A stretch of 64,000 nt of DNA. Source: Escherichia coli (lineage in GTDB: Bacteria; Pseudomonadota; Gammaproteobacteria; Enterobacterales; Enterobacteriaceae). The DNA is taken from NCBI GenBank assembly GCA_902500125.1, contig GCA_902500125.1_4132.1; one strand, 5' to 3'. Shown piece by piece: positions 1,971 through 51,690 of this stretch. The notes below the pieces were generated by a model. That model searched no databases, was not told the DNA's origin, and saw only the letters and a program-made list of their open reading frames with translations. A program made the translations under genes and the position numbers. How positions within the stretch are numbered: position 1 is the stretch's first letter; every line of letters starts with the position of its first letter.

Positions 1971-1987
1971 CTCGTTAGAGGTTTGTT

Positions 1988-2347
1988 ATGAAGAGTTATA
2001 TAAAATTAATAGCACTTGTGTGTGCATTATTTTCATGTTTTAGTTATGGTGCAGCAGCAGAAACATATTGTCGTAGTACTAAGGGAACGTGGCATGTATT
2101 GACTAACGACCCTAGAAATGGTAAAAATATAGTTGTTGATGGTGTGATTTATCGTTTTAAAGTAGCAAGTATTATCGGTAATAAAAAAATCTCGACTTAT
2201 AGAGATGATTCTGGTACATTAGCAAACGTAATATTAATTGTAGACCCAAGAACTGGTAATGGTGATATCTATATAGTAATTTACTTGGACTCATCGGTAC
2301 GCCGTGACCTAGATATAGATAAATTGAACTTACACTGTGAAATATAG
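1988..2347 (+). CDS. secreted protein with signal peptide
   Basis: Track ORF; N-term MKSYIKLIALVCALFSCFSYGAAA. Confidence 0.55.
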   Translation: MKSYIKLIALVCALFSCFSYGAAAETYCRSTKGTWHVLTNDPRNGKNIVVDGVIYRFKVASIIGNKKISTYRDDSGTLANVILIVDPRTGNGDIYIVIYLDSSVRRDLDIDKLNLHCEI

Positions 2348-2358
2348 GACTTAAAAAA

Positions 2359-2736
2359 ATGGTAAACACTATTTTACTTTTGTTGTTGAATATTCCAATT
2401 ATTCTGTCTTTTTTAATTTCTATTTTTATGGCAGGATATTGTTTAGTTGCAGTAATTCATTTCATTTTAACAAACAAATATGTCCTAATTTCTAAGCTTG
2501 ATTCTATTTTTGCTTGCGATTCGATTGCTTATAACTTGTGGTTAATTTGTTCTTGCATTATGGGAGTAACTTTCCTTCTGTATGTATTTGATGTCCTTGA
2601 CCAAAAGTTCGTATATATCAGTACTGGATTGGCTCTTTATCCTGCTACGTGGTACTTGATTTACGTTGGTGATATATGGTATAGTACTTATAAAGAATAT
2701 CAGTACAAGAAATCACTTAACGTTGGAGGAAAATAA
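2359..2736 (+). CDS. membrane protein (125 aa)
   Basis: Track ORF; multiple hydrophobic segments. Confidence 0.55.
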   Translation: MVNTILLLLLNIPIILSFLISIFMAGYCLVAVIHFILTNKYVLISKLDSIFACDSIAYNLWLICSCIMGVTFLLYVFDVLDQKFVYISTGLALYPATWYLIYVGDIWYSTYKEYQYKKSLNVGGK

Positions 2737-2738
2737 TC

Positions 2739-3089
2739 ATGAAAATTATTTTATTTTTTGTATGTATGTTAATGTGTGGATTGTCATATGCTGAACCATT
2801 GGAAGGTTTAGTTTGTACAGATGGTAATATTAAACATATCTATCAAGGTGATAGTGACGATCGAGATATTGTATATATTGATGGACAATCATATACGTTT
2901 GTTAAAGAGCATACAGTAGGCGACATTAGCTTCACTGAGTTTTCTAACGACACAGACCCTAACTTCTTAGCGTTTATTGAAGTAGATGTATATGAAGATA
3001 GTAATGGTACACAATATGCTAAATTAGTTATGATGCGTCGTGGTGCTAAAGAAACTAGTTTTGGTGGCTTGTGTAAATATAAGGATTGA
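2739..3089 (+). CDS. secreted protein with signal peptide
   Basis: Track ORF; N-term MKIILFFVCMLMCGLSYA; GGAGG RBS. Confidence 0.55.
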   Translation: MKIILFFVCMLMCGLSYAEPLEGLVCTDGNIKHIYQGDSDDRDIVYIDGQSYTFVKEHTVGDISFTEFSNDTDPNFLAFIEVDVYEDSNGTQYAKLVMMRRGAKETSFGGLCKYKD

Positions 3090-3093
3090 TATT

Positions 3094-3285
3094 ATGTTGA
3101 TTTATCAAAGTGATAATATTCGTGTTATGCAGCATCCCTACTTACAAATCTTTGATGTGCAGCAGTATATGGAAGGTGATGACCCAAGAACCTATGGTCG
3201 TAAGTATGATTACTTCACTGTAAAGCAGTGTAATAATATTAACGAAGTACGACAATTAGTTCAAGAACTTCAAAACAAAGGTTGA
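3094..3285 (+). CDS. hypothetical protein (63 aa)
   Basis: Internal ATG of track ORF 3040..3285 with AAGGA RBS; stop lies in terminator stem. Confidence 0.45.
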   Translation: MLIYQSDNIRVMQHPYLQIFDVQQYMEGDDPRTYGRKYDYFTVKQCNNINEVRQLVQELQNKG

Positions 3286-3311
3286 CTTCGGTCAGCCTTT
3301 TTTGTTATAAT
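3278..3311 (+). terminator. terminator hairpin (UUCG loop) fused to promoter
   Basis: GGTTGAC-TTCG-GTCAGCC plus T-run; TTGACT of stem is -35, TATAAT about 17 nt downstream. Confidence 0.6.
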
Positions 3312-3339
3312 TCTCTTAATAAATTAGAGGATTTTAATT

Positions 3340-3780
3340 ATGTATGTATATCGTTTTGAACTTAAATTTAGTTACATTGAACCTAACTTAGATCCTGCAC
3401 GAACTGTAGGTCCGTTTGCACGGTATTCAACCAGATACAGTACTAAAAATGGATTTGACCGTTTGCTTATGACTACACCTTCTCAATTCCAACCTGAACC
3501 AACTGAGGATGGGATCTATTCAATCAAAAGTGGATGGGTATTTGGCTGTCAAAGTTTGAAAGATTTGTTCAGATTCTTCACTATGGACTTAGGTAAATTG
3601 CATCGTGCTGGGTTTGCTATATCTGTATATGAAGTTCCAGACCACCATGTAGACATTGGTCGTAATCAGGTTCAGTACTATTGCGGTAGTGCTAAATTAG
3701 TTCGTATCATGTCAGTTAAGGAAGCAAAGGATGAGTTCCGACAAAGTAAAAGAGAAACACATGAGGTAATATATGGATAA
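3340..3780 (+). CDS. hypothetical protein (146 aa)
   Basis: Track ORF; GAGG RBS. Confidence 0.6.
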   Translation: MYVYRFELKFSYIEPNLDPARTVGPFARYSTRYSTKNGFDRLLMTTPSQFQPEPTEDGIYSIKSGWVFGCQSLKDLFRFFTMDLGKLHRAGFAISVYEVPDHHVDIGRNQVQYYCGSAKLVRIMSVKEAKDEFRQSKRETHEVIYG

Positions 3781-4117
3781 AACTCAAATAGAATTAAAGA
3801 AATTTGTTTCATTCTATCTTCCTGATGACCCACGTAATTCACAAAAAGATATTGAATATTATAATATCCTATCTAAACAGTTAATGAGAAAGTTTCAACA
3901 GTGTTTAACTATATTCAATACAGATGGAAGACGTAGATACCGAATCGTTTCAATGAATGATGAAAACGCAAATTTCTTTGATTACGATGTAGTTTTTAGA
4001 GCATATAATGATGATCGTATAAAATTAAATTATGATCAAATTATACTTGACCTGAATGTTATATGTGTTATAATCACTCACGTAGCCGAACTTAATGGTT
4101 TTAAAGAATGGTATTGA
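3773..4117 (+). CDS. hypothetical protein (114 aa)
   Basis: Track ORF; start overlaps upstream stop. Confidence 0.55.
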   Translation: MDKTQIELKKFVSFYLPDDPRNSQKDIEYYNILSKQLMRKFQQCLTIFNTDGRRRYRIVSMNDENANFFDYDVVFRAYNDDRIKLNYDQIILDLNVICVIITHVAELNGFKEWY

Positions 4118-4131
4118 ATAGAGGATAACAT

Positions 4132-4398
4132 ATGAAGCTTAAATTACAATATAATGGATTTACTTTACGTAATGATACTGAATTTATTAATCGTTCTCCT
4201 GGTGCTGAACTGTTTTTACGAGAGATGAACATTCCTTTCATCATTACTACAGTGGGCGACCGTGAAGTTCTACAATATGCAGAGCATCCGATTATTGATG
4301 TTCCTTGGTACTCTGAGCATATGTACATGGATATGGCACGTCGCTACAACTGTAAGTTCGTAGTTGAAGGTGATAAAATTACAGTCGAATTTAAATAA
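4132..4398 (+). CDS. hypothetical protein (88 aa)
   Basis: Track ORF; GAGGA RBS. Confidence 0.55.
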   Translation: MKLKLQYNGFTLRNDTEFINRSPGAELFLREMNIPFIITTVGDREVLQYAEHPIIDVPWYSEHMYMDMARRYNCKFVVEGDKITVEFK

Positions 4399-4409
4399 GG
4401 TAAATTAAA

Positions 4410-4703
4410 ATGATCAGTACTTCAGTTAATGAAAGCATCGTCGCTGACGTAGAAATGGTTAAAGAATGTGCAGATGAAACTCTTCGTGATATGTACATTA
4501 ATGATTTAATTACTGAATACGGTAGTCGTGGTGTACACGAATTTATTCGTTTAAGTGGAGAGTTGATGAAAAATCGAATTCGTATGAAGCTTAACGTACA
4601 TCCAAAAGCATGGGCATTTACATTAAAATACGCAGAAGATATTGTGAATTTGCGTCGAACTGAAGTATATGAACGTTTACACAATGGTATGTTAGATAAA
4701 TGA
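4410..4703 (+). CDS. hypothetical protein (97 aa)
   Basis: Track ORF. Confidence 0.55.
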   Translation: MISTSVNESIVADVEMVKECADETLRDMYINDLITEYGSRGVHEFIRLSGELMKNRIRMKLNVHPKAWAFTLKYAEDIVNLRRTEVYERLHNGMLDK

Positions 4704-4712
4704 TTGTAAAAT

Positions 4713-4739
4713 AGGAATTCTTAAATGAATTCCTTTTTG
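4713..4739 (+). terminator. rho-independent terminator
   Basis: AGGAATTC-TTAAAT-GAATTCCT hairpin followed by TTTTT. Confidence 0.6.
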
Positions 4740-4755
4740 TTTATAAGGTATAGTA

Positions 4756-4977
4756 ATGAAATATATAGTACTTGTACTGATATTATTCAGTACTGTTGTA
4801 AGTGCTAAACAAAAAGAATATATTAAATGTATAAATTATGAAGAGAAATATGTTGAAACATATAAAAAAAGTATAATTAAAAACGTTTCGATTACTAACA
4901 GAGCAACAATCATTGTACTTAAAAATGGGTTAATTATGCTATATAAACCACACGTTAAATGTGAAATTATTAATTGA
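4756..4977 (+). CDS. small secreted protein
   Basis: Track ORF; N-term MKYIVLVLILFSTVVSA. Confidence 0.5.
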   Translation: MKYIVLVLILFSTVVSAKQKEYIKCINYEEKYVETYKKSIIKNVSITNRATIIVLKNGLIMLYKPHVKCEIIN

Positions 4978-4984
4978 GGAAATT

Positions 4985-5557
4985 ATGAATCGTAAAGGTC
5001 GTTTTAAAGTATCAAAAAAGAACAAAAGTTCTAGGTTTAAACCTATTGTTTTAACAGTTAAATCTAACAAAGATTTAACTGCACTTAGTAAAAAGATAAT
5101 TTCATCTAAGATTGAAGTATCATACGTAAATTCATTAAAATATATGAATGTCAAACCACTGGACCAACTCATTTCACTTATATTTGAACGTAATGATTTT
5201 GAGATATCAGTAGATGATTATAGAGCCTATAATGCTGGTTTCATTAATGTTACTTGTAATAAAAAACTAACTGAGTTGGAAAATTTGTCATGTATAATAA
5301 ATCTAGATAAAGGTGTTGTGAAGTACCATTTTGTACATTTCACTAATATCAATAATGGAATGGGTGTACAATCCAGACCTATAGTGCCTACGTGTGATGT
5401 TACTAAATTAGCAAAGCTCAATGATGAAGAATATTTTCAAGAAAGCATTGTAACTGAGCATTTAGATGATATAATAGCTACTTACAAAGAATGCATATGG
5501 GTGTTGAATGCTATAAAACCTAAATTGTGTTTAATGAATATTGTTCGTGATTTATGA
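4985..5557 (+). CDS. family C paralog (EEYFQESI motif)
   Basis: Internal ATG of track ORF 4961..5557 with GAGGA RBS; NDEEYFQESIV matches 59-63.7 kb family. Confidence 0.55.
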   Translation: MNRKGRFKVSKKNKSSRFKPIVLTVKSNKDLTALSKKIISSKIEVSYVNSLKYMNVKPLDQLISLIFERNDFEISVDDYRAYNAGFINVTCNKKLTELENLSCIINLDKGVVKYHFVHFTNINNGMGVQSRPIVPTCDVTKLAKLNDEEYFQESIVTEHLDDIIATYKECIWVLNAIKPKLCLMNIVRDL

Positions 5558-5570
5558 ATGGGGAATCGTA

Positions 5571-6014
5571 ATGAGTTGGGTAAATGTTAATAGTATTGAA
5601 CTTAACGAACAAGATATTTTTGCATTTGTAAATTTAACTAATAACACAGTACTAAAAGGGCGTTTGTTCAGTGCGAGTGATGGATATAAATGGATCTCTT
5701 TGATGGATGATAGTGGTGTGATTTATAATGTAATGCAATTACCCCAATGGGTATATAGTAACACTGCCGACGATGTTCTTGCCGCAGTTATGCGTGAGTT
5801 TGAAAAACTCCCAGGTGGTGATATCAAAAACAAAGTTTTTAATGCAGAACGGAAAAATTATACAGCACAGCAGTTGGAATCCCTTGCCATTGCTGCTTAT
5901 CAAGCTGCTATTAAGAAGCCAGAGTGCGTTATTCTTAAGTATGTACCAGACTTAAAACTTACGTTGGAAGACATGGATGCATTCATTTTTACATCTGAAC
6001 TTGATCAGTACTAA
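5571..6014 (+). CDS. hypothetical protein
   Basis: Internal ATG of track ORF 5541..6014 placed after upstream stop. Confidence 0.5.
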   Translation: MSWVNVNSIELNEQDIFAFVNLTNNTVLKGRLFSASDGYKWISLMDDSGVIYNVMQLPQWVYSNTADDVLAAVMREFEKLPGGDIKNKVFNAERKNYTAQQLESLAIAAYQAAIKKPECVILKYVPDLKLTLEDMDAFIFTSELDQY

Positions 6015-6129
6015 TTTAACTTTGGGACAACCATTCTTATTATGATATAATGTTTTATGTCATTCGATATAAATGACAACGGAACTATAAATATTATAGT
6101 AAAATTTATCTCTTATAGGAGTTATAAAA

Positions 6130-6513
6130 ATGGTTGGTAAATGGAATAAGAAAGATCCATCACATGATGTTGATATTTCTGGTCTAGACAATGCACATAA
6201 GCACAAGTATCTAGATTCACTAGGTCTTCTAAAACCAGACCAAAGTCTTGCACATGATCGTCCATCCCGTGAAAAAGCATTTAGCCTAGAATCACTAGGC
6301 CATGAGCTTAATCGTGTGTTTGAGGATCACCCAATCTATGTACGTGATATTATCGAGAAACTTAAAGTAACTCCTAAAGAGCACTTTAAAGCAACTGTAC
6401 ACTCTGCATTCCGTGCATTACATGAATCTCTAAAGAAAACTCACAATCTTCGTAAAATTCATGATGAAATCGTGAATGCAATCGAAAGTGAAAAACATAA
6501 GTTCAAGAAGTAA
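6130..6513 (+). CDS. hypothetical protein, paralog of N-terminus of 7880..9118
   Basis: Track ORF; KHKYLDSLGLL and KVTPKEHFK match KLRYVNSLGLL and QSVPKEELK in 7880..9118. Confidence 0.55.
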   Translation: MVGKWNKKDPSHDVDISGLDNAHKHKYLDSLGLLKPDQSLAHDRPSREKAFSLESLGHELNRVFEDHPIYVRDIIEKLKVTPKEHFKATVHSAFRALHESLKKTHNLRKIHDEIVNAIESEKHKFKK

Positions 6514-6520
6514 TAAAAAT

Positions 6521-6552
6521 GGTTGACTAAGGTCAGCCCTTTGTTGTATCAT
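6521..6552 (+). terminator. terminator hairpin fused to promoter-like element
   Basis: GGTTGAC-TAAG-GTCAGCC hairpin; TTGACT and TATCAT spaced about 18. Confidence 0.45.
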
Positions 6553-6581
6553 AACTTCTCAATATAACTGAGGTATCATAT

Positions 6582-6695
6582 ATGCAAGGTTTGAAATTTG
6601 TAGTTGCTGCCCTAATCGCTGCTGTTGTAGTGGGTACAGTATGTTATTCAATTGACACCTATATCAATACACCTAGTGTTGAACAAACCAAATAA
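6582..6695 (+). CDS. small hydrophobic peptide (37 aa)
   Basis: ATG after TGAGG RBS; MQGLKFVVAALIAAVVVGTV...; below track size cutoff. Confidence 0.3.
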   Translation: MQGLKFVVAALIAAVVVGTVCYSIDTYINTPSVEQTK

Positions 6696-6703
6696 GGGAT
6701 ATC

Positions 6704-6967
6704 ATGGCTGAAACATTATCACTATATGCGTTAGTACTGTTATTTGTCGGATTTCTTCCCGCACTCATTACAGCCATTCGTGTTGTTAAACATGAAGCTG
6801 CATTGATTGTATGTAGTATTGGGTCGAACATTCTATTGTATTTCTTTTTGACAAATACTATTGTACTGTTTGCTTTCTTTATCATGATTCTGTGGGTACT
6901 TGTAATTCTCGGATTCTTCATTTGGTCATTGGTTGATCCTAAGAAAAAATCAGGAGAAGTGAAATGA
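6704..6967 (+). CDS. membrane protein (87 aa)
   Basis: Track ORF; hydrophobic. Confidence 0.5.
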   Translation: MAETLSLYALVLLFVGFLPALITAIRVVKHEAALIVCSIGSNILLYFFLTNTIVLFAFFIMILWVLVILGFFIWSLVDPKKKSGEVK

Positions 6968-7260
6968 AATTAATTATAGCAATGATAATGTGTTTGGCTT
7001 TCCCTGTACTGGCTACTCCTAATCTGGACTGCACACTGTTGCGTTCAGATGGTGACACACTTGAAATCAACACATATGAACTCTTTGGTCCAAGTGTAGT
7101 GGAGAATGAAACCACCTACAATTTCAAAGCTATTGACTTTGAAGGTAATGTTCCAGTACTAACTACAATGACTATTGACAAAACTACTTTACTCGGACGA
7201 ATCACCACACAACGCGGAGAAAGTAAAACATTCACAGCGAAAGCTGACTGTAACTACTAA
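6964..7260 (+). CDS. secreted protein with signal peptide
   Basis: Track ORF; ATGA overlap with upstream; N-term MKLIIAMIMCLAFPVLA. Confidence 0.55.
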   Translation: MKLIIAMIMCLAFPVLATPNLDCTLLRSDGDTLEINTYELFGPSVVENETTYNFKAIDFEGNVPVLTTMTIDKTTLLGRITTQRGESKTFTAKADCNY

Positions 7261-7282
7261 TGGTATAGTACAGTGAAAATAG

Positions 7283-7312
7283 GGTTGACTTCGGTCAACC
7301 TTTATATATAAT
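7283..7312 (+). terminator. terminator hairpin (UUCG loop) fused to promoter
   Basis: GGTTGAC-TTCG-GTCAACC perfect stem, T-run, TATAAT downstream. Confidence 0.6.
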
Positions 7313-7325
7313 GGAAGAAATAAAC

Positions 7326-7883
7326 ATGGAACGTTGGAAATTAATTCCTGATTATGACTATTCAATTTCTGATCATGGAAGAGTAAGAAACGAACAAACT
7401 GGATATATAAGTTGTGGATTTAAAAATAAAGATGGGTATGTGAAGGTCGATTTGTATCGCAATTCTGTGAAAAATAGAAAGGCGATTCATCGACTAGTAG
7501 CTGAAGCATTTTTACCACCACCCACACAGAAACAGTTACAGTGGGCGAGTAGAACAAAGAAAAAAGTTGTTCACATAAACCATAAAGATTGTAATAGAAG
7601 TAACAATCACTATTTGAATTTGGAATGGAACACAGCATCTGAAAACGTACTATATTCTTATTCACATGGTAACGCAACAACTAATCGTGGTGCTGCTGTG
7701 TTGACATGGGAAATTGTAAGAGAAATAAGAAAAGATTATAATGATAATTATAATGATGTGATAGAATATGCACGAGAAAATTGTAATAAATACCGTGTAT
7801 GTAAAAAAAACAATACGTCGTATTTTATACAATCAAACATGGATAGAGGATTAAAAATATGCCACAAGATAATGGGGATATGA
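7326..7883 (+). CDS. HNH homing endonuclease (NUMOD4-like N-terminus)
   Basis: ERWKLIPDYDYSISDHGRVRN and HINHKDCNRSNNHYLNLEWNTASEN motifs; start could be 7311. Confidence 0.8.
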   Translation: MERWKLIPDYDYSISDHGRVRNEQTGYISCGFKNKDGYVKVDLYRNSVKNRKAIHRLVAEAFLPPPTQKQLQWASRTKKKVVHINHKDCNRSNNHYLNLEWNTASENVLYSYSHGNATTNRGAAVLTWEIVREIRKDYNDNYNDVIEYARENCNKYRVCKKNNTSYFIQSNMDRGLKICHKIMGI

Positions 7884-9118
7884 AACATCGTAATGGTGGA
7901 CTAGTACAACACTCGGATAAATGGGCCGACCGAAATCGTCGCAAAAATAGTTATCAAGCAGGACAAGGTTCACGTGGTTCCAGAAACCAAGGAACGGGAC
8001 TTGCTGGTAAGGCAAACGCAGAAGCAGGTGAAGTTAAGAGTACTGAGAACATGACTGAGCTAGAAAAGCTACGTTATGTTAATTCATTGGGACTTCTTAA
8101 TGCTACACAAAAACAACGTCTAGCTGATATGGAACGTGAAGAAAAAGAAAAGTCTGCTCCTGCGAAAGAAGAACCAAAACAAGAAGCACCAAAGGCGGTT
8201 AACCCTGTCAAAGAACTGTCTGATAAGTTAGGTAAGATTTTTGCTAATAAACCACAACTTATCCAAGGTATTGTGAAAGAATTGCAATCTGTACCTAAAG
8301 AAGAATTAAAAGTCAAAGCACAAGCTGTACTTGATGCAATGAGTGGAAATACCAGTACTGAACCAACTGAAGTATTCAGTACTATAATGCGTGCACTTGA
8401 AGGTACGCAACAAGGTGATGTGCCTGCACAAGAGGAAGTAAGTCTTGAAAGCGTACTTAAAACATTTGATAGTATTGGTAAAGAAGACCGTGCTAATGCT
8501 CAACAAGTTAAGAATGTACTAGCTAAGTTAGAAAACCGTCTGGAAGGTAAAGACGATAAGATTAAATTAGTATCTGATGCAGTTAACGATGCACTTAAAT
8601 CTTATGTACAAGGTGAAAAGAGTCGTTTTGTAACTGCAATGGATGCTGCATTCAATACTATGAAAAAGTATGAAGCTGATCATGGTGAGAAGGTTACACG
8701 AGATGGTTATCTGATGCGTGATGATGAAGAAGGTGCAGTAGAACAGAATGATGTTCATTCAGACGAAGAAATTGATGACATGGAAGCTGAACTGTCACAA
8801 GACCGCCAAATGACTGAAAAATCCCATAACGAACTACAGAAATTAATGCAATGGGTTGCAGATGTTGGTGAAAAAGCTGGTGCTGATAAGAAGAGTATAA
8901 ACCGAAATCTTAGTTGGATTAAAGATAAAGTTGGTAACAACGCTCGTAAACTACAAAAAGCGTGGACTGATGTAGTGAATGGTGCTGTTGACATTGATGT
9001 TGAATCCGGTGAGGCATATGATTATGCATTGACTACACTTGATGACTCTTTCCGTGATTACGAAAATGGAAATGTAACTCCTTGGGAAAAGGATATCATG
9101 AGCAAATACGGTAAATGA
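7880..9118 (+). CDS. acidic, coiled-coil-rich hypothetical protein
   Basis: Track ORF 7859..9118; ATGA overlap with HNH stop chosen as start; N-terminal region paralogous to 6130..6513. Confidence 0.6.
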   Translation: MKHRNGGLVQHSDKWADRNRRKNSYQAGQGSRGSRNQGTGLAGKANAEAGEVKSTENMTELEKLRYVNSLGLLNATQKQRLADMEREEKEKSAPAKEEPKQEAPKAVNPVKELSDKLGKIFANKPQLIQGIVKELQSVPKEELKVKAQAVLDAMSGNTSTEPTEVFSTIMRALEGTQQGDVPAQEEVSLESVLKTFDSIGKEDRANAQQVKNVLAKLENRLEGKDDKIKLVSDAVNDALKSYVQGEKSRFVTAMDAAFNTMKKYEADHGEKVTRDGYLMRDDEEGAVEQNDVHSDEEIDDMEAELSQDRQMTEKSHNELQKLMQWVADVGEKAGADKKSINRNLSWIKDKVGNNARKLQKAWTDVVNGAVDIDVESGEAYDYALTTLDDSFRDYENGNVTPWEKDIMSKYGK

Positions 9119-9127
9119 TAAAACAAA

Positions 9128-9160
9128 AGGTTGACTTCGGTCAGCCTTTTTTGTTATGAT
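9128..9160 (+). terminator. terminator hairpin (UUCG loop) fused to promoter
   Basis: GGTTGAC-TTCG-GTCAGCC plus TTTTTT; TTGACT as -35. Confidence 0.6.
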
Positions 9161-9188
9161 GTTGGTATTAACTACAGAGGATAAAGTA

Positions 9189-9830
9189 ATGACTAAGCAA
9201 GACATATTCAAAACTTTAATTGACATTTTGCGTCCATCAAAAACTCGTTGTGCGATGGAGTTTGATATTCCTTATGCTGAACGCGTAATCTTTCCACAAG
9301 TTAAAGCTGCTGGACTTACTTTGCTTGGAATGGGGATGTACTCTGTAGTAGTTGAACATAAAAACTATCCTGGACGTGCATTTAAAGTAACCACTTCACG
9401 CTGGGATGGTTTTCGTGCTTATGCAAAGTACTGCATTGAAAACGCAGGAACCAAGTTTCTTCCAGTGATCTACAGTGCCAACGAACAAGGAAACTTTGGA
9501 TGGTATGAGATGGACAAGTACTATCCTATAATTAAACAAAAAAATAATTATGATGACTTTGTTAGTACTAAAATTGGAGATTTATATTCTTATGCACATG
9601 CTGGTCAGTACGCTACTTCAGTGAATGATATGCGTGGAAATTCTGAAGAGATTGCTATTGCAACGGTCGCTGCTAACATCATGAAAGAGTTTCACGGGCG
9701 TTTTGTACCAGACATTCATTCAAGTAATGTGATGATGGATAAAGATGGCAATGTATTCATTACTGATCCTCTTTCGTGTGATGTACGTAGAGAAATACCA
9801 GTTACTGAAGAAGATCCAGTTTTTTATTGA
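9189..9830 (+). CDS. protein-kinase-like protein
   Basis: GMGMYSVV..AFKV Gly-loop/Lys and DIHSSNVMMDKDGNVFITD catalytic-loop-like motifs; GAGGA RBS. Confidence 0.5.
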   Translation: MTKQDIFKTLIDILRPSKTRCAMEFDIPYAERVIFPQVKAAGLTLLGMGMYSVVVEHKNYPGRAFKVTTSRWDGFRAYAKYCIENAGTKFLPVIYSANEQGNFGWYEMDKYYPIIKQKNNYDDFVSTKIGDLYSYAHAGQYATSVNDMRGNSEEIAIATVAANIMKEFHGRFVPDIHSSNVMMDKDGNVFITDPLSCDVRREIPVTEEDPVFY

Positions 9831-9891
9831 CAGAACTGATGTTCTGGTGTATTCTTAATAAACCATAAAAATTGCGGTAAAGGATAAAATC

Positions 9892-10173
9892 ATGCGTTCA
9901 TTTGAAAACTTAATAGGTAAGCATCTTTTATCTGAAATTGATGCAGACGTTAAAGAATTATCCAAATCAAAAAGTTACATTCATTTGGATGAACTGTTTA
10001 TTAAGTACGGTGAGATTGGTTTTAAGTCATTATTTGTTTTTACTATGAAAGTACATAGTTTAAAGTACTTCGATTTGAGTTCTAAAGATGGTGAACCGAA
10101 TCTATATTACATGTATTACCTTAAGAACAAAGATGAAGCTAATACATTACTCTCTGAATATATATTGGGGTAA
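9892..10173 (+). CDS. hypothetical protein (93 aa)
   Basis: Track ORF; AAGGA RBS. Confidence 0.5.
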   Translation: MRSFENLIGKHLLSEIDADVKELSKSKSYIHLDELFIKYGEIGFKSLFVFTMKVHSLKYFDLSSKDGEPNLYYMYYLKNKDEANTLLSEYILG

Positions 10174-10175
10174 AA

Positions 10176-10514
10176 ATGGAACAATATTTTGAATTAATAA
10201 ACAAAGTATCATTTTATGTAGTATCTTTGGTTTGGGTGTATTATATGTTTTGCTATATTATTGCATTCTTCCGATATACTACTTTATATGAACGTATCTA
10301 CTATGATGCCCCAATTTCATTCTTGATGTTTTGTGCATGTACGTGGGGAATATTAGAAGTACTGATATGTGGGTATAGTACTGATGAATTAAATCTGGTA
10401 TCGGTGTTGACTGGGTTTTCATTTGTTGTTATGATAGCTGCCGTTCCAGTATGGTTGTTCTTTGGACTAGTTCATCGCATTGATATATGGCGTTCTAATA
10501 TCCCTGAAAAGTAA
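10176..10514 (+). CDS. membrane protein, paralog family (C-terminal RxN[ILM]PE)
   Basis: Track ORF; hydrophobic helices; ends WRSNIPEK. Confidence 0.55.
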   Translation: MEQYFELINKVSFYVVSLVWVYYMFCYIIAFFRYTTLYERIYYDAPISFLMFCACTWGILEVLICGYSTDELNLVSVLTGFSFVVMIAAVPVWLFFGLVHRIDIWRSNIPEK

Positions 10515-10517
10515 GGA

Positions 10518-10865
10518 TTGGAAATGATTTATTACACTAACATGTTTGCCTATGCTGTTGCTTGCATTTACATTGTTTACTTCTTATTCGGTGGAGTACT
10601 GTGCTTCTTTAAGTACAAAACGTTGTTCAACCGAATGTACCCAAATCATCCAATTGTAGTTGTACTTTTGATTCTTTCAGTTTCTCAAATAATCGTTGAA
10701 ACTACAATGGGTATCAGTAGTGTACATTATAGTTTTGGCACTATAGTAATTATTACTATGCTTATTGCATACATTTTAGTACTTGGATATGGTATCTTTG
10801 GTAATATTGGTATGAAAATGTATCATCGAATTAAAACATTACGTGATAATCTACCGGAGCGTTGA
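10518..10865 (+). CDS. membrane protein, paralog family
   Basis: Track ORF; ends LRDNLPER. Confidence 0.55.
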   Translation: MEMIYYTNMFAYAVACIYIVYFLFGGVLCFFKYKTLFNRMYPNHPIVVVLLILSVSQIIVETTMGISSVHYSFGTIVIITMLIAYILVLGYGIFGNIGMKMYHRIKTLRDNLPER

Positions 10866-10866
10866 T

Positions 10867-11211
10867 ATGTATAATTTGAACCTAATCTCATATATTATAA
10901 CAACACTGTTTACATTCTATGCCTTTGTTGGTATAATCCTACTGTACTTTAAATTTTATAAAGTGTTTAACCGTTTCTATCCTTCAATGGAGAATGAGTT
11001 TTTCTTTGTGTTGTACGTAGGTTACACATTAATGGCTACATGTTTCACTGTAGCCGATGGTGTCATCGGCATTAAAACTGATTCCCCAAATGGTAGTACG
11101 CTGGTTGCATTTATTCTTACTGGATTCCTTGCAACTTATATTGCCTTCATTACAACATGGTCAGTGGTTGAATTTCTCTTGCGACTACGAAAGAATATGC
11201 CGAATCGATAG
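10867..11211 (+). CDS. membrane protein, paralog family
   Basis: Internal ATG of track ORF 10843..11211 after GGAG; ends LRKNMPNR. Confidence 0.55.
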   Translation: MYNLNLISYIITTLFTFYAFVGIILLYFKFYKVFNRFYPSMENEFFFVLYVGYTLMATCFTVADGVIGIKTDSPNGSTLVAFILTGFLATYIAFITTWSVVEFLLRLRKNMPNR

Positions 11212-11220
11212 GAGACATAT

Positions 11221-11475
11221 ATGTTTGCGTTGCGTAATAAAAACACTAAAGAATTATTATGTATTGATACCGTATGGGATTGTGCGGGATCAACTACAGT
11301 TCTTGAAGAAGGAACTGGATATTGCGTGTTTGTTGTTCATGATAGGAATGAACTCGAATTATTACTTGCTGAGTTCAATGCTGGTGGTAATCCTAACAGT
11401 ACTGAATACCCTGAGATTATCAATCCAGCACCACCAGGCTCTTATGAAATTCTACAACTGTGGGAGTTGAAGTAA
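11221..11475 (+). CDS. hypothetical protein (84 aa)
   Basis: Track ORF; GGAG RBS. Confidence 0.5.
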   Translation: MFALRNKNTKELLCIDTVWDCAGSTTVLEEGTGYCVFVVHDRNELELLLAEFNAGGNPNSTEYPEIINPAPPGSYEILQLWELK

Positions 11476-11855
11476 TGCGTCAAATGCACAAAGTAACCGA
11501 GCTAAACAAGCGTCTGGTTAAACAATCAATGTTCGAGGATAAAGAGTCTTATTATAACTTTAAACGTGCTGTAGAGGCTGCTATCCACATTCAGAAGCTT
11601 AAAGAACGTGGTTGTATTATTCTGGAAAATGGGTCGGAAGTTGTAACGGATGACTTTAGTGTAGCGTTTGATGTTTCACCTGACGGGACGCTATCAATGC
11701 CCCGCTTAGGAACTGGAAACATGACTGTTTGGGTTGGCTTCACTATGGGGAATGTACCTGGTACTGTGTACGTAGATGATGCGGAATTGAAAGACAGTTT
11801 CAAAAACTTATCTTATCTTGAACCACAATACGCACATGAAATGAATTTATTTTGA
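11475..11855 (+). CDS. hypothetical protein
   Basis: TAATG overlap start inside track ORF 11460..11855. Confidence 0.5.
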   Translation: MRQMHKVTELNKRLVKQSMFEDKESYYNFKRAVEAAIHIQKLKERGCIILENGSEVVTDDFSVAFDVSPDGTLSMPRLGTGNMTVWVGFTMGNVPGTVYVDDAELKDSFKNLSYLEPQYAHEMNLF

Positions 11856-11931
11856 GTTGACAAACACATTCAGTACTGTATAATGCTTATCAAGGGGATG
11901 AACTTCTCATCCCTACAATCGAGGAACTACC

Positions 11932-12486
11932 ATGATTACTTTTAAGAAAACTGCTAACCACATCCATGAAATCTACATTAACGGTCACAAAGCTGGCCTT
12001 CTTCGTTTACTCGCCCATCATCCTGATGTTACCGTATCTGATAATGAACCTAAAGATTGGCGTGTATTTTTCTTTGGAAAGTACAGTGATTTTCAAGTAT
12101 CAAACCTGAAGAACATTCGTTCAGTATGCACGTTAACTGAAATTAAAGAAAAGTTAGAAAAAGCATTGAAAACTAATCCAGATGGTGTTCTTCCACCTGA
12201 TAACTTTGTAGAGAAAGGTTATGCATTAGCTCATTTCAAAGATGGTACTATTCAATCTATCAGTACTGAATATGAATATCAATGGACTGAGTACTTCACT
12301 TATGGATCGCGTAATACATTGATGGCTTCACGTAGTAAATTGGAAGAAGTACTGACTCGTATGAATGAACGCGAACGTCAATTTTATGACAAACCAGAAA
12401 TGTGGAGTTCAACTTACATTGACCGTATTGACTATGTTATTATGACTCCAATCTTTGACACTGCTTACTATGATTCTTTGAAATAA
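11932..12486 (+). CDS. hypothetical protein (184 aa)
   Basis: Track ORF; GAGGA RBS. Confidence 0.6.
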   Translation: MITFKKTANHIHEIYINGHKAGLLRLLAHHPDVTVSDNEPKDWRVFFFGKYSDFQVSNLKNIRSVCTLTEIKEKLEKALKTNPDGVLPPDNFVEKGYALAHFKDGTIQSISTEYEYQWTEYFTYGSRNTLMASRSKLEEVLTRMNERERQFYDKPEMWSSTYIDRIDYVIMTPIFDTAYYDSLK

Positions 12487-12497
12487 GGATAACTTAT

Positions 12498-12674
12498 ATG
12501 AAACTACGTACTCGTAATCGACTGATGGATGCACTGTACCATGAACAGCTTTCACTGAATGAAGTGAAGCGACAGTTAATGTACACATATCTGTTACCCG
12601 ATCGCATTGCAAAACAACGTGCTAAAGAATTGCTGAAAGAAGCAATCGAGTACTGGGAATCTGATTCGTACTAA
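12498..12674 (+). CDS. hypothetical protein (58 aa)
   Basis: ATG after AAGGA RBS; below track cutoff; coding-like composition. Confidence 0.4.
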   Translation: MKLRTRNRLMDALYHEQLSLNEVKRQLMYTYLLPDRIAKQRAKELLKEAIEYWESDSY

Positions 12675-12702
12675 TTGTCACGTTAATTAAGTGAGGCGAT
12701 AA

Positions 12703-12954
12703 ATGAAAATTTTATTAGTTCTAATACTACTAATTGTTTTACCATTTACGTTAGTATCCCCTGAACTTGCATGGAATGTGTTTGTGTACTTAGTATGTAC
12801 TATTGTAGTAAATGGTATCTTGTTCTTAGTTCTATTCATAAATGGAATAGGACACGGTGGAGGATGGACCAGTACTGCTGATATTGTACATAAAACCACT
12901 ATGTCTTTATTTGTAATGTGGAATTTATTCTGGACTTGGTTTGTGTTCTTCTAA
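12703..12954 (+). CDS. small membrane protein
   Basis: Track ORF; hydrophobic; GAGG RBS. Confidence 0.5.
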   Translation: MKILLVLILLIVLPFTLVSPELAWNVFVYLVCTIVVNGILFLVLFINGIGHGGGWTSTADIVHKTTMSLFVMWNLFWTWFVFF

Positions 12955-12962
12955 TTAAAAAT

Positions 12963-13334
12963 ATGAATATAGATTTGAAAGGTGCAACCCGAACTGTCAT
13001 ACTCATTGGGGAATATGCTATCAAGATTCCAACCTTTAAAAGTTGGAAGCTATTCTTAACAGGGATGATAGCTAACCTCAATGAACGTTCGTGGATGCAG
13101 TACTCCAATCGTAGTGATAGTAGTATCTGTCCTACGTTGTGGTCATCATGTACTGGACTAGTAACTGTACAGAAACGTTGTAAGCCAGTGCAACATAGGG
13201 GTTTATTTTGGGTGGAGTTGTGTGCTTTAGCATTGAATTCAGAGTTAAGTACTGACTTCTTCTATTCAGATGCGAAGCCAGAAAACTTTGGGTATCTGTG
13301 TGGTAAGTTGGTTAAACTTGATTATGGAGATTAA
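12963..13334 (+). CDS. mini protein-kinase-like protein
   Basis: GATRTVILIGEYAIK, DAKPENFG and KLDYGD in kinase motif order; internal ATG of track ORF. Confidence 0.45.
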   Translation: MNIDLKGATRTVILIGEYAIKIPTFKSWKLFLTGMIANLNERSWMQYSNRSDSSICPTLWSSCTGLVTVQKRCKPVQHRGLFWVELCALALNSELSTDFFYSDAKPENFGYLCGKLVKLDYGD

Positions 13335-13335
13335 T

Positions 13336-13605
13336 ATGTACGCATTGTATAATAAAGAAAAGAAACGATTTGCTAAGGTTGAAATTTCGATTGATACATT
13401 TGACATGTTGGAGTACTGTATTGTAACGGACTTATATGCTAACTTGTATTACGTTCTTGATGACGTATCAGTACTGCAACGATTGCTTGAGAATTCCAAA
13501 AGTCAATGCCAGGACATCCATGATGGTTCATCTTATGAAACACCTGAGTGTCCCCACGGGCAACTCGATGGGTATGAGATTGTTAAGTTGGGAATTGTTG
13601 AGTAA
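13336..13605 (+). CDS. hypothetical protein
   Basis: Internal ATG after GGAG within track ORF 13270..13605. Confidence 0.45.
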   Translation: MYALYNKEKKRFAKVEISIDTFDMLEYCIVTDLYANLYYVLDDVSVLQRLLENSKSQCQDIHDGSSYETPECPHGQLDGYEIVKLGIVE

Positions 13606-13670
13606 AAGGTATTGACACCGTACTCATTTAACTGTATTATGTATGTACACCAACTAATGAGGAATCGGAA

Positions 13671-14030
13671 ATGGCATCTTTATCTGAAATCACTGAACTG
13701 AATCCACTGGTAATTAGTACTGTTCAACGCACCAAGACGTTTTACTTCCGTCCTGCTGATGGATGGAAACGTGGAATGAATGGTGACTATCGAGTACTGG
13801 AAGATTCGCTCATCGAGCGTATCAACTCTGAACTACAGAAGTATGAAGGTGTTAAAGTTGTCCGTTCAACTTCTCGTTATTTTGAGTACTACATTGAGTC
13901 TTCAACTGTAAATGAAAACTCATCATTCTCGGTGGATAACACTGATATTCTTCGCAATGCAGTTGGTTTGCTATGCAACATTGCAGAAGAAATGGGATTA
14001 ACTATCACCACAATGAGTGAGTTAGAATAG
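13671..14030 (+). CDS. hypothetical protein (119 aa)
   Basis: Track ORF; GAGG RBS. Confidence 0.55.
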   Translation: MASLSEITELNPLVISTVQRTKTFYFRPADGWKRGMNGDYRVLEDSLIERINSELQKYEGVKVVRSTSRYFEYYIESSTVNENSSFSVDNTDILRNAVGLLCNIAEEMGLTITTMSELE

Positions 14031-14040
14031 AATAAAAAAA

Positions 14041-14073
14041 GGGTTGACTTAGGTCGGCCCTTTTGCTATTATA
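14041..14073 (+). terminator. terminator hairpin fused to promoter
   Basis: GGGTTGAC-TTAG-GTCGGCCC hairpin with wobble pairs, T-run, TTGACT/TATTAT. Confidence 0.55.
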
Positions 14074-14100
14074 TCTATATCGAAACGAAGGAGACAAACC

Positions 14101-14874
14101 ATGACCCGTCAAGAGAAAGCAATCCAAATCGAAAAAAACTTCAATAGCATGATGGCTGCACTGGAATGCCTTCTTGATACACAAGCTAACTCTATCAACT
14201 CTCTGATCGTATCAGGTAAAGGTGGTGTTGGTAAAACTTATAACGTTGACCAACGGTTGCAGAAAGCTGATGATAACTTTGAAATCGACTACAAGAAAAT
14301 CAGTGGTAAAGTAACTACTTTGGGTCTGTACGAAGCACTGTATCGTTCACGTCATGCCGCATCAGTACTGTTACTTGATGACGTTGATATCTTCTCTGAC
14401 GAGACTAATATTGATTTGCTTAAAGCTGTGTTGGATACGTCAGAGAAGCGTGTAGTTTCTTACGCGACTTCTGCTAAGTACCTGGAACAGCAGGGTATCC
14501 CTAAGCAGTTTGAATTCCGTGGTAAAGTAATCTTTCTGACTAACAAAAACCTGTCACAGATTGCTAAAGGTAAAAGCAGCTTAGCACCACACATCGATGC
14601 ACTGATCACTCGTAGTATCTTTGTTGACCTGCAACTGTTCACCAACGAAGAAGTGATGATTCACATTGAGAACATCATGAACAAAACTAACATCCTTGAA
14701 AACAATGGTGTTAACAAAAATGGTTGTAAAGCAATCCTGAATTGGATGCTGAACAACGAAGAACGTTTGCGTAGTCCATCACTGCGTATGCCAGTACTGA
14801 TCGCTGGTTTGTATAATAAATTCCCATACGATTGGGAATCAATGGCAGAGAATATGTTCCTTGAGAAAATTTAA
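14101..14874 (+). CDS. P-loop NTPase (Walker A GKGGVGKT, Walker B LLLDDVD)
   Basis: Track ORF; deviant Walker A resembling ParA/MinD-type; GGAG RBS. Confidence 0.65.
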   Translation: MTRQEKAIQIEKNFNSMMAALECLLDTQANSINSLIVSGKGGVGKTYNVDQRLQKADDNFEIDYKKISGKVTTLGLYEALYRSRHAASVLLLDDVDIFSDETNIDLLKAVLDTSEKRVVSYATSAKYLEQQGIPKQFEFRGKVIFLTNKNLSQIAKGKSSLAPHIDALITRSIFVDLQLFTNEEVMIHIENIMNKTNILENNGVNKNGCKAILNWMLNNEERLRSPSLRMPVLIAGLYNKFPYDWESMAENMFLEKI

Positions 14875-14941
14875 TTACATGTATTGACAGTACTACACTA
14901 TGGTAGTACTATAACTTAATATTCACCACCGGAGATACGAT

Positions 14942-42453: not shown

Positions 42454-42462
42454 TTGAAAAAA

Positions 42463-42545
42463 GGGTTGACTCCGGTCAGTCCCTTTGCTATTATATATAC
42501 ATACCAGCGATACACTGGCGGCCCATAGGGTGCACAAATGTATCT
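42463..42545 (+). promoter_or_regulatory. extended terminator-promoter module with CCCATAGGGTGC motif
   Basis: GGGTTGAC-TCCG-GTCAGTCCC hairpin, TTGACT/TATTAT, then GCCCATAGGGTGCACAAATGTATC. Confidence 0.55.
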
Positions 42546-45835: not shown

Positions 45836-45849
45836 AAATAATTGAAAAA

Positions 45850-45930
45850 GGGATTGACTCCGGTCAGTCCCTTTGCTATTATATACGCATAGAAACAAAT
45901 TAGCCCACCGGGTGCATAAATGTATCTATT
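45850..45930 (+). promoter_or_regulatory. extended terminator-promoter module with CCCACCGGGTGC motif
   Basis: Same module as 42463, 48857 and 51610. Confidence 0.55.
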
Positions 45931-48842: not shown

Positions 48843-48856
48843 AAAAGATTAAAAAA

Positions 48857-48930
48857 GGGATTGACTCCGGTCAGTCCCTTTGCTATTATATATCCATTGA
48901 GAGATAACTCACTGACCCATAGGGTGCGGA
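48857..48930 (+). promoter_or_regulatory. extended terminator-promoter module with CCCATAGGGTGC motif
   Basis: Same module as 42463. Confidence 0.55.
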
Positions 48931-51592: not shown

Positions 51593-51609
51593 CAAAAAAG
51601 AATAAAAAA

Positions 51610-51690
51610 GGGATTGACTCCGGTCAGTCCCTTTGCTATTATATACGCATAGACAAAAACTAGCCCACAGGGTGCATAGGTGTATCCAAA
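51610..51690 (+). promoter_or_regulatory. extended terminator-promoter module with CCCACAGGGTGC motif
   Basis: Same module as 42463. Confidence 0.55.

Follow-up and report, generated by a model that had tools for sequence, protein, structure and literature searches.

PeSLs (promoter-early stem-loops) were described in the coliphages RB49 and phi1, where each joins a stem-loop terminator to a strong sigma-70 promoter with an AT-rich region upstream, all in the interval from a stop codon to the next Shine-Dalgarno (SD) sequence and ATG (Arbiol et al. 2010, PMC2839356). Five subclasses are known, among them one in which the stem-loop overlaps the -35 box, and lacZ fusions showed both promoter and terminator activities; the stem-loop of PeSL211/210 reduced lacZ expression to roughly the same degree as rrnB T1 (PMC2839356). 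The promoters were too strong for intact cloning, and recombination between neighboring PeSLs excised cassettes with the formation of mini-circles (PMC2839356). For the T4-like vibriophages of the KVP40/nt-1 group, the consensus was later given as A3-4 G3, loop, C3 T3-4, together with a sigma-70-like TTGYVH-N17-TAWWAT (Comeau, Arbiol & Krisch 2014, PMC4122927). For bacteria, the general idea of a preprint, 'Widespread coupling of promoters and terminators of transcription in bacteria' (bioRxiv 10.64898/2026.08.19.745784), is that sites of initiation and of termination are coupled between adjacent units. We analyzed a 64,000-nucleotide stretch of DNA (the window), which belongs to a 121Q/phAPEC6-like jumbo coliphage (Asteriusvirus). 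On the evidence below, its repeated hairpin elements are quite probably PeSL-type composite cassettes in early gene blocks transcribed by the host RNA polymerase.

A search for GGTTGACTTCGGTCAGCC at up to three mismatches returned nine matches in the window, all nine on the + strand, compared to a chance expectation of 0.00 in 100 dinucleotide shuffles. The exact consensus is found only at 3280 and 9129. Five near-identical elements had been reported in the initial annotation, and these exist within 1–2 nt of where it placed them (motif starts 3280, 6521, 7283, 9129 and 14042). Four more lie outside the range that it covered (motif starts 42464, 45852, 48859 and 51612) and share the variant form G(G/A)TTGAC-TCCG-GTCAGTC. 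Besides these four copies, it had overlooked the recombination role and the prior PeSL literature. The layout is an A-tract, a G-rich stem containing TTGACT, a 4-nt loop, the 3′ arm, a short T-run, TGn where present, and a -10 hexamer. The elements, with their predicted promoter boxes, are the following:

Element 1, 3277..3311, + strand: stem-loop 3277-3300, AAAGGTTGAC-TTCG-GTCAGCCTTT; -35 TTGACT 3282-3287; T6 run; TGT and -10 TATAAT 3306-3311; next ATG 3340.
Element 2, 6517..6552, + strand: stem-loop 6517-6542, core GGTTGAC-TAAG-GTCAGCC; -35 6523-6528; 18-nt spacer; -10 TATCAT 6547-6552; upstream stop ends at 6513; downstream SD and ATG 6582 of a 37-aa hydrophobic ORF.
Element 3 (atypical), 7281..7312, + strand: stem-loop 7281-7302, GGGTTGAC-TTCG-GTCAACCT, a perfect stem with U-A in place of U.G; -35 7285-7290; 16-nt spacer; T-run TTTATATA; -10 TATAAT 7307-7312; ATG 7326 of an HNH homing endonuclease just 13 nt past the -10, leaving almost no leader.
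Element 4, 9125..9160, + strand: stem-loop 9125-9150; -35 9131-9136; T6; TGT and -10 TATGAT 9155-9160; upstream stop ends at 9118; next ATG 9189, a protein-kinase homologue.
Element 5, 14037..14072, + strand: stem-loop 14037-14064, AAAAGGGTTGAC-TTAG-GTCGGCCCTTTT, with two U.G pairs; -35 14044-14049; TGC and -10 TATTAT 14067-14072; ATG 14101.
Element 6, 42460..42494, + strand: variant stem GGGTTGAC-TCCG-GTCAGTCCC with one bulge or mismatch; -35 42466-42471; -10 TATTAT 42489-42494.
Element 7, 45847..45882, + strand: AAAGGGATTGAC-TCCG-GTCAGTCCCTTT, 12 bp, -19.5 kcal/mol; -35 45854-45859; -10 TATTAT 45877-45882; non-coding leader downstream.
Element 8, 48854..48889, + strand: variant as in element 7; -35 48861-48866; -10 48884-48889.
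Element 9, 51607..51642, + strand: variant as in element 7; -35 51614-51619; -10 51637-51642.

Every copy lies 0–22 nt after the upstream stop codon and carries an A-run of 3–7 immediately 5′ of the G clamp. The -10-like hexamer at promoter spacing from the TTGACT of the stem, as the initial annotation had it, is present throughout: the spacer is 16–18 nt in all nine copies and the hexamer is TATAAT, TATCAT, TATGAT or TATTAT, with the extended -10 TGn in seven of the nine. Its observation of a stop codon inside the stem was likewise correct, as the TGA (3283-3285) of the upstream ORF 3094-3285 lies within both the stem and the -35 box of element 1. Two details were revised. The UUCG-type loop attributed to four of the first five copies occurs in three (3280, 7283 and 9129); the loop is TAAG at 6521 and TTAG at 14042, and the four copies at 42–52 kb have TCCG. 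The T-run following the stem is T6 at 3280 and 9129, while the other seven copies have 3–4 T that are then interrupted by G or A, as in the TTTATATA of 7283. In four of the first five copies the SD and ATG are found 28–29 nt past the -10, element 3 being the exception. What follows the four copies at 42–52 kb is not a gene but a non-coding interval of 143–277 nt that has a second promoter; downstream of element 6 this is a 173-nt stretch with a CCCATAGGGTGC box.

The predicted RNA hairpins have stems of 7–12 bp and energies of -10.7 to -19.5 kcal/mol, with the -35 box in the 5′ arm. A canonical intrinsic terminator consists of a G+C-rich hairpin and, immediately after it, a U-tract of about 7–9 nt. 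The hairpin component is present in all copies; the short U-tracts (3–4 U) in seven of the nine suggest that termination may be weak, and termination by these copies is likely partial. A consensus terminator scan of the region called the sites at 3277, 6521, 9125 and 14037 terminator-like. Orthologous hairpins were called intrinsic terminators independently in G17 (by ARNOLD; -14.3 at the site of element 1 and -13.8 at that of element 2), in UE-S1 and in the CBB paper (Torf39).

We evaluated stem pairing in 77 distinct 28-mers from many phages, a set in which the inner five stem pairs are fixed by the search pattern and which is enriched for TTCG loci through the exact-match scan. Paired cells amount to 91.3%, compared to 24–58% in the slid controls, where pairing collapses. 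Double-sided stem changes numbered 35, against 10.3 ± 2.7 after shuffling, a value not reached in any of 500 shuffles. At stem pair 5-24, for example, GC was seen in 51 sequences, AU in 10, UA in five and CG in two. The loops are diverse (TTCG, TCCG, TACG, GAAA, GAGA, GTAA, GCAA and others) and include UNCG and GNRA tetraloops. The U8.G21 pair is a wobble in 68 of the 77 sequences, which makes the hairpin strand-specific; it may also serve to avoid an antisense TTGAC. The covarying outer stem and the varying loops support the view that the hairpin behaves like a selected RNA structure.

These data bear on whether the elements could be promoters only, the inverted repeat either having no function or serving early shut-off as a DNA operator bound by a dimeric regulator of the phage or the host, and termination not taking place. 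The repeat is centered on the -35 box, a frequent repressor site, most U-tracts are short, and the phage does have other conserved DNA boxes adjoining promoters (AGTACT and CCCAYMGGGTGC). Yet the half-sites differ in DNA, GGTTGAC versus GGCTGAC, which puts a T.G mismatch into 68 of 77 sequences, a pairing that only RNA tolerates. The outer stem varies in sequence and stays paired, which is the opposite of what a sequence-specific operator would do. The tetraloop classes, the invariable location after a stop codon with T-rich sequence next, and the RB49/phi1 stem-loop that terminated about as well as rrnB T1 (PMC2839356) point the same way, and we regard the operator reading as very unlikely.

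The promoter half was examined through an IMG/VR scan for the exact 18-mer in viral contigs, which gave 52 non-redundant contexts. In 46 of them TAnnnT follows at 16–19 nt, mostly as a tTGcTATAAT-like sequence and usually with SD and ATG thereafter; by a rough, informal estimate about 14% would have TAnnnT at one of the four spacings by chance in AT-rich DNA. The coupling of the -10 to the hairpin across diverse phage contigs thus supports selection on the promoter half as well. It is difficult to reconcile with ordinary intrinsic terminators in which the TTGAC of the stem and the -10-like hexamer are incidental and the downstream genes are served by read-through or other promoters. That reading has the annotations on its side: the deposited records of G17 and UE-S1 and the CBB paper give the hairpins as terminators and nothing else. 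Furthermore, a scan of the region for sigma-70-like sites found 94 against 88.3 ± 10.2 in shuffles, so promoter-like matches are cheap in AT-rich DNA, and several of the rare bacterial copies of the hairpin have no obvious downstream gene. However, the -10 usually comes with TGn and at a fixed distance of about 28 nt from SD/ATG, and other terminators in the window (4713 and 17411) are built on unrelated stems. In nt-1, a phage with published PeSLs, AAAAAGGGTTGAC-AGAT-GTCAGCCCTTTTTTGTATCAT and AAAAGGGTTGC-TTCG-GCAGCCCTTTTTTGTTATTCT are read with the -35 inside the stem, and TTGC variants occur too. There the 3′ arm co-varies with the -35 variant (TTGC/GCAG versus TTGAC/GTCAG), indicating that a TTG-type -35 is kept in the stem while the stem remains paired. 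We consider it highly improbable that the elements are terminators alone. The dual use proposed in the initial annotation therefore has comparative support in silico for both of its halves, the covarying stem and the coupled -10.

The relatives of the window reveal a further property. The element at 9129 is a chimeric junction, with the left flank of the G17 element at 8315 and the right flank of that at 9400. At this position G17, phAPEC6, 121Q and CRJP21 have two elements around a three-gene cassette of about 1.1 kb, and UE-S1 has a single element, as in the window. At 14042 the left flank is that of the phAPEC6 element at 14634, and the alignment continues rightwards from the element at 16815 (91.7% identity); the relatives have element pairs around different 1.4–2.2 kb cassettes where the window has one element. 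The denV cassette of the relatives starts with its own element, and the element at 7283 sits, together with the HNH homing endonuclease, within a 1.3 kb insertion. About two of eight breakpoint clusters are within 30 nt of a window element, a distance that takes in 1.6% of the sequence (binomial P about 0.007, a rough calculation by hand).

Such junctions, and the mini-circles formed between PeSLs in RB49/phi1 (PMC2839356), would be expected were the elements mainly sites of recombination or mobility, that is, cassette boundaries, possibly cut by a site-specific enzyme or carried with homing endonuclease genes, their transcription signals being secondary. Most copies nevertheless keep their positions among relatives without rearrangement. 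The indels of the 40–54 kb region are located at other repeated promoter or leader sequences and not at hairpin elements, so any repeat of about 50–100 nt seems to serve. A search of the element-flanked cassettes for homing-endonuclease domains found none that was recognizable, and the spacer length, TGn and SD distance are explained by transcription, not by recombination. A primary role in recombination is accordingly the least credible of the readings, and one that we think most unlikely.

In the PeSL-type reading, which we prefer, a stretch of about 45 nt would be read twice, as nascent RNA and as double-stranded DNA. The RNA from the upstream gene would fold to give a hairpin with a G/C clamp, its loop being 4 nt long and usually UNCG, and a U-rich tract would come next. 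Acting as an intrinsic terminator or attenuator, this structure would free the polymerase while it is still within the promoter spacer and has yet to reach the -10 or the start site. At the DNA level the 5′ arm would offer TTGACT as a sigma-70 -35 box, the upstream A-tract, which resembles a proximal UP element, may act as one, and the end of the T-run would supply the TG of an extended -10, with the hexamer at 16–18 nt. The new transcript would begin about 7 nt past the -10 and have a leader of about 21 nt with the SD sequence. That termination and initiation take place in vivo is inferred, as are their efficiencies. At element 1, a ribosome stopped at 3283-3285 may delay folding of the hairpin. 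Each small early gene or gene group would in this manner be expressed as a self-contained unit, insulated from its neighbors. The initial proposal, insulation between small genes that adjoin each other, does not describe the four copies at 42–52 kb, since these precede non-coding sequence. As the cassettes repeat in direct orientation, they would also provide homology for recombination by which the intervening genes are deleted, inserted or swapped.

Stop hairpins joined to host-type start signals have already been described as PeSLs in T4-like phages, and the elements are hence a further instance of a known device; no new mechanism is involved, and the general understanding of transcription is unchanged. 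What they add is the extension of PeSL-type cassettes from T4-like phages to Rak2/121Q jumbo phages. This would allow promoters and operon boundaries to be called for hundreds of early genes that lack annotation, explain the differences in gene content of these regions among phage-therapy isolates, and offer synthetic biology a very compact, portable insulator-plus-promoter part. The core of 24–26 nt, AAAGGGTTGAC-UUCG-GTCAGCCCTTT, with tTGcTAtaaT, is found almost verbatim in phage lineages that lack other detectable DNA similarity: Rak2/121Q-like jumbo phages, KVP40-like and Aeromonas Straboviridae, and unclassified viral contigs of 108–162 kb. The core sequence AAAGGGTTGACTTCGGTCAGCCCTTT is present in Vibrio phage D480, Aeromonas phage 65 and RaK2. 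The exact 24-mer is very rare in bacteria, with eight stretches in 185,579 genomes. Near-verbatim occurrence in otherwise dissimilar phages and near absence from bacteria suggest, tentatively and against our own leaning, that the core might be a horizontally mobile regulatory cassette that crosses phage families with genes, and not merely a convergent optimum. A subset of the elements would launch short non-coding leaders in which a CCCAYAGGGUGC box is invariant and lies at a constant distance from the start site. As part of the same conjecture this box could be a cis-acting signal, which could, for example, modulate read-through of the many downstream cassette terminators.

By the sequence-level criteria for promoter, stem-loop, A-run and placement, the elements have the PeSL architecture. 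The association of PeSLs with variable regions of small ORFans and with indels between relatives is seen at 9129, 14042, denV and 7283, except in the 40–54 kb region. The original host type is a T4-like myovirus, whereas the closest records here are Caudoviricetes of Asteriusvirus, not Straboviridae. That host type reflects the phages in which PeSLs were discovered, and the mechanism does not require it; the core sequence of the element is also present in Straboviridae. The bacterial promoter-terminator coupling of the preprint (bioRxiv 10.64898/2026.08.19.745784) is alike in general idea, but differs in that the phage 24-mer is scarcely found in bacteria. The RB49/phi1 PeSLs are likewise composites of promoter and stem-loop between stop codon and SD/ATG. 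Their stem-loops, however, are polyG/polyC and mostly lie between -35 and -10 or over the -10, whereas the stem of the present elements incorporates the -35 itself; and they were studied by reporter and mini-circle assays, whereas the elements here are known from sequence, with only the end-products of deletion and insertion visible. The KVP40/nt-1 vibriophage PeSLs (PMC4122927) come closest. Their architecture is the same and their sequence almost so, and they too are intergenic among small ORFans and tied to indels; the exact core found here also occurs in a related vibriophage and in Aeromonas phage 65. The phage here differs from that group in being a Rak2/121Q-like jumbo phage of about 350 kb (Asteriusvirus) and not a member of the Straboviridae, in its uniform TTGACT -35, and in the 42–52 kb subset, which would drive non-coding leaders with a second promoter and no gene.

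A search with GGTTGACTTCGGTCAGCC, allowing up to 3 mismatches, returned nine matches in the window, all on the + strand, compared with 0.00 in 100 dinucleotide shuffles. The five sites of the initial annotation (3280, 6521, 7283, 9129 and 14042) are real, and four further copies are located at 42464, 45852, 48859 and 51612. The observation is confirmed and widened from five copies to nine. As had been proposed, a good -10 hexamer lies at promoter spacing from the TTGACT of the stem, and it does so in all nine elements (spacer of 16–18 nt), seven of which have the extended -10 TGn. The RNA hairpins, in which the A-tract pairs with the T-run, have predicted energies of -10.7 to -19.5 kcal/mol, and a + strand stop codon is found 0–22 nt upstream of each element. 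The stop at 3280 (TGA, 3283–3285) falls within the stem, as described earlier, and within the -35 as well. The UUCG loop attributed to four of the first five copies is seen in three (6521 has UAAG and 14042 has UUAG). The T-run said to follow the hairpin is strong at 3280 and 9129, and not strong at the other copies. A Shine-Dalgarno sequence and ATG are found 28–29 nt downstream of the -10 in four of the first five elements, which implies a leader of ~21 nt; element 7283, with its 16-nt spacer, has an ATG merely 13 nt from the -10. Copy 42464 was considered as a G-C to G.U to A-U intermediate, an idea that was dropped when re-alignment showed a mismatch or bulge. A search of the whole window with Rfam (gathering threshold) and ARAGORN gave no match; thus, the elements and the conserved leaders downstream are not known RNA families or tRNAs.

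Positions 3000–15000 of the window are 96–98% identical (megablast, phage records) to the Escherichia jumbo phages CRJP21, phAPEC6, 121Q, G17 and PBECO4, which are Asteriusvirus members of the Rak2-like group with genomes of ~350 kb. The G+C content of the window is 30–40%, and the GC skew delineates + strand gene blocks at 1–18 kb and 32–64 kb, with a - strand block in between. The region of the elements is a series of small ORFs, most without annotation, and includes a homologue of the gp0.7-like protein kinase annotated in relatives, in which the denV gene is also present at this region. It looks like early DNA transcribed by the host polymerase.

A generic promoter scan gave 94 sites compared with 88 in shuffles and is uninformative in such AT-rich DNA, hence the promoter argument rests on the coupling of the hairpin with the -10. 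In the viral contigs of IMG/VR, 39 stretches contain the exact 18-mer and provide 52 non-redundant contexts; among the contigs are Rak2-like genomes of 345–378 kb, Aeromonas phage 65 (235 kb), a vibriophage of 247 kb and unclassified contigs of 108–162 kb. TAnnnT is found at 16–19 nt in 46 of the 52 contexts, mostly as ...CTTTT(T)GCTATAAT/TATTAT; the chance of TAnnnT at four spacings in AT-rich DNA is ~14%, a rough estimate and not a computed value. Most of these -10-bearing contexts have a Shine-Dalgarno sequence and ATG downstream. The -35 variants TTGCTT and TTGCAC of phage nt-1 are paired with GCAG/TGCAG in the 3' arm, and so the stem tracks the -35.

For the analysis of covariation, every TTGAC-N4-GT[CT][AG][AG] 28-mer was collected from the window, the loci of relatives and the viral contigs, for 77 distinct sequences. 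When a 12-bp helix was imposed on this set, 91.3% of the cells were paired, and pairing fell to 24–58% when the partner columns were slid by 1–3. Double-sided changes numbered 35, compared with 10.3 ± 2.7 in column shuffles (0 of 500). As the search pattern itself fixed the inner five pairs, the information comes from the outer seven; pair 5-24, for example, is GC in 51 sequences, AU in 10, UA in 5, GU in 4 and CG in 2, and pair 4-25 is AU in 48, GU in 13 and GC in 7. The loops are freely variable, with UNCG and GNRA tetraloops among them, and 68 of the 77 sequences have a U.G wobble at position 8-21. Such a wobble is tolerated in the sense RNA and is a mismatch in DNA and in the antisense RNA. 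These covariation, loop and wobble signatures point to a coding-strand RNA hairpin and not to a DNA operator. The wobble G would also block a mirror-image TTGAC on the opposite strand.

From the sequence and established knowledge of terminators and promoters, we propose that a polymerase arriving from the upstream gene would transcribe the hairpin and U-tract and be released inside the spacer. The released polymerase would never cross the -10 or the start site, and promoter occlusion would thus be avoided. For a fresh sigma-70 holoenzyme, the identical 5' arm would be the -35, the A-tract would probably act as an UP element, and the TGn would be supplied by the final T plus G of the T-run. The short U-tracts suggest that most copies attenuate rather than fully stop transcription. 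A ribosome that terminates at 3280 would sit over the stem, and the gap between ribosome and polymerase may thus influence transcription termination at this copy.

The elements also mark sites of gene gain and loss. When window 1–18500 was aligned (blastn) with G17, phAPEC6, UE-S1, CRJP21 and 121Q, the breaks in collinearity were located at the elements. The single element at 9129 corresponds to two in G17 (8315, 9400), phAPEC6 (8049, 9134), CRJP21 and 121Q, which flank a ~1.1 kb cassette of three genes. The two alignments overlap here by exactly the element (9105–9152), the window matching the first copy on the left side and the second copy on the right; UE-S1 has the single-element state. 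Likewise, the one element at 14042 corresponds to pairs around different 1.4–2.2 kb cassettes in the four relatives with two elements. G17 also has an element pair at 15177/16591. The denV cassette of relatives starts with its own hairpin element. The window instead continues directly with a plain TTGACA promoter (13612), a junction compatible with exchange at TTGAC boxes. Two further features accompany elements 6521 and 7283.

Insertion and one-gene cassette near elements 6521 and 7283
6625–7910: insertion of 1.3 kb, absent from G17, phAPEC6, UE-S1, CRJP21 and 121Q; contains small ORFs (6704–6967, 6964–7260), element 7283 and an HNH homing endonuclease (7326–7883; NUMOD4 + HNH_3)
6582–6695: 37-aa hydrophobic ORF (MQGLKFVVAALIAAVV...), directly 3' of element 6521

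What the insertion replaces is an element that relatives have at ~6706, together with the 5'-most ~45 nt of the gene after it. In relatives the 37-aa ORF is annotated as a hypothetical protein and is bracketed by two hairpin elements, hence it is a one-gene cassette. Homing endonucleases as the agents behind the indels were rejected: the sole such ORF is the one after 7283, and no endonuclease domains were found in the cassettes between the element pairs of G17, phAPEC6, 121Q and CRJP21. The domain search of the cassettes did find a CapR domain in 121Q gp221. At 40–54 kb the hairpin elements are not the indel junctions. The overlapping alignment ends (against fEgEco12, G17 and ph0011) fall there at plain-promoter/leader repeats, 43318–43378 and 46433–46529, where relatives have additional small-gene cassettes between duplicated copies; hairpin-free promoters therefore also act as recombination junctions. 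The alignments make it seem a general rule that any repeated regulatory block provides homology.

These hairpin-free promoters form a second class, TTGACA-N9-AGTACTG-TATAAT, in which a palindromic AGTACT adjoins the -10 and is often found again just 5' of the -35. The search with AGTACTGTATAAT (up to 1 mismatch) gave 23 sites in the window compared with 0.33 expected. AGTACT looks like a putative regulator-binding box within near-consensus sigma-70 promoters. An invariant box, CCCAYMGGGTGCRNRRNTGTAWC, occurs 8 times in the window compared with 0.01 expected.

AGTACT promoters (among the 23 sites)
1509–1536
11857–11884
32763–32790
43024–43051
43338–43365
46439–46466
49292–49319
49783–49810

Occurrences of CCCAYMGGGTGCRNRRNTGTAWC
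33672
35679
35725 (- strand)
42522
43918
45904
48916
51664

CCCAYMGGGTGCRNRRNTGTAWC is placed at a fixed ~27–29 nt after the -10, including at all four hairpin promoters of 42–52 kb, usually with a small variable hairpin 5' and with the AGTACT box and second promoter 3'. Hairpin promoters of other contigs, Rak2-like ones and a viral contig of 108 kb (loci L010, L026 and L033), likewise have the box on their 3' side, and it gave no Rfam or tRNA match. An RNA structure in the leader of the box, CCCAYMGGGTGC (also written CCCAYAGGGTGC), is not claimed: RNAalifold on 27 copies returned a weak 5-bp helix of -1.64 kcal/mol and no double-sided covariation. A signal in a leader or sRNA is one possible role of CCCAYMGGGTGCRNRRNTGTAWC, and a binding site for a protein is another. 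At 35625–35800 two convergent promoters, 35625 (+) and 35797 (-), are ~170 nt apart, each with CCCAYMGGGTGC on its 3' side, so that the boxes make a long inverted repeat. Viral contigs L026 and L033 have this convergent layout too; it could produce antisense transcripts that overlap, or form a terminator that works in both directions.

Within the literature searched, we found no description of composite cassettes of this type in the jumbo/RaK2/GAP32/121Q/phAPEC6 group. The RaK2 paper nowhere mentions promoters or terminators, and the word "promoter" is absent from the matched text of the phAPEC6 paper. The CBB paper gives an orthologous element as a terminator only, the RpoD-like promoters listed there being different ones, and the G17 and UE-S1 records annotate the elements as terminators only. 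The architecture matches that of the published PeSLs (promoter-early stem-loops). As defined, these combine a strong sigma-70 promoter, preceded by AT-rich DNA, with a stem-loop; relative to the -35 and -10 boxes, the stem-loop may overlap either one or be situated between them, 5' of them or 3' of them (PMC2839356; Arbiol et al. 2010). The drop in lacZ expression caused by the stem-loop of PeSL211/210 was similar to that caused by rrnB T1, clones of PeSL promoters gained -35 or -10 mutations because the promoters are so strong, and mini-circles arose from recombination between neighboring PeSLs (PMC2839356). In silico evidence, together with experiments on this class of element in other phages, supports the dual use of the element as terminator and promoter, as initially read.

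Another hairpin, CAGAACTGATGTTCTG (9831–9846), lies inside the spacer of a promoter at 9827–9855 (TTGACA-17-TATTCT), which fits a further published PeSL subclass, whose stem-loop separates the -35 from the -10. Two more hairpins (1399–1416, 4713–4734) similarly have -10-like hexamers close downstream. The 24-mer AAGGGTTGACTTCGGTCAGCCCTT is very rare in bacteria (8 stretches in 185,579 genomes). Exact copies are found in the Bdellovibrio bacteriovorus chromosome (L053), Vibrio (L054, L057) and Bacteroidetes MAGs (L055, L056, L058), some with a -10-like hexamer on the 3' side (in Bdellovibrio, ...CTTTCTTTATTAT). The PeSL consensus of nt-1/KVP40 is A3-4G3-loop-C3T3-4 with TTGYVH-N17-TAWWAT (Comeau et al. 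2014, PMC4122927). The nt-1 genome itself carries AAAAAGGGTTGAC-AGAT-GTCAGCCCTTTTTTGTATCAT and related versions, and the exact AAAGGGTTGACTTCGGTCAGCCCTTT is found in Vibrio phage D480, Aeromonas phage 65 and RaK2, the last with eight copies in 20 kb.
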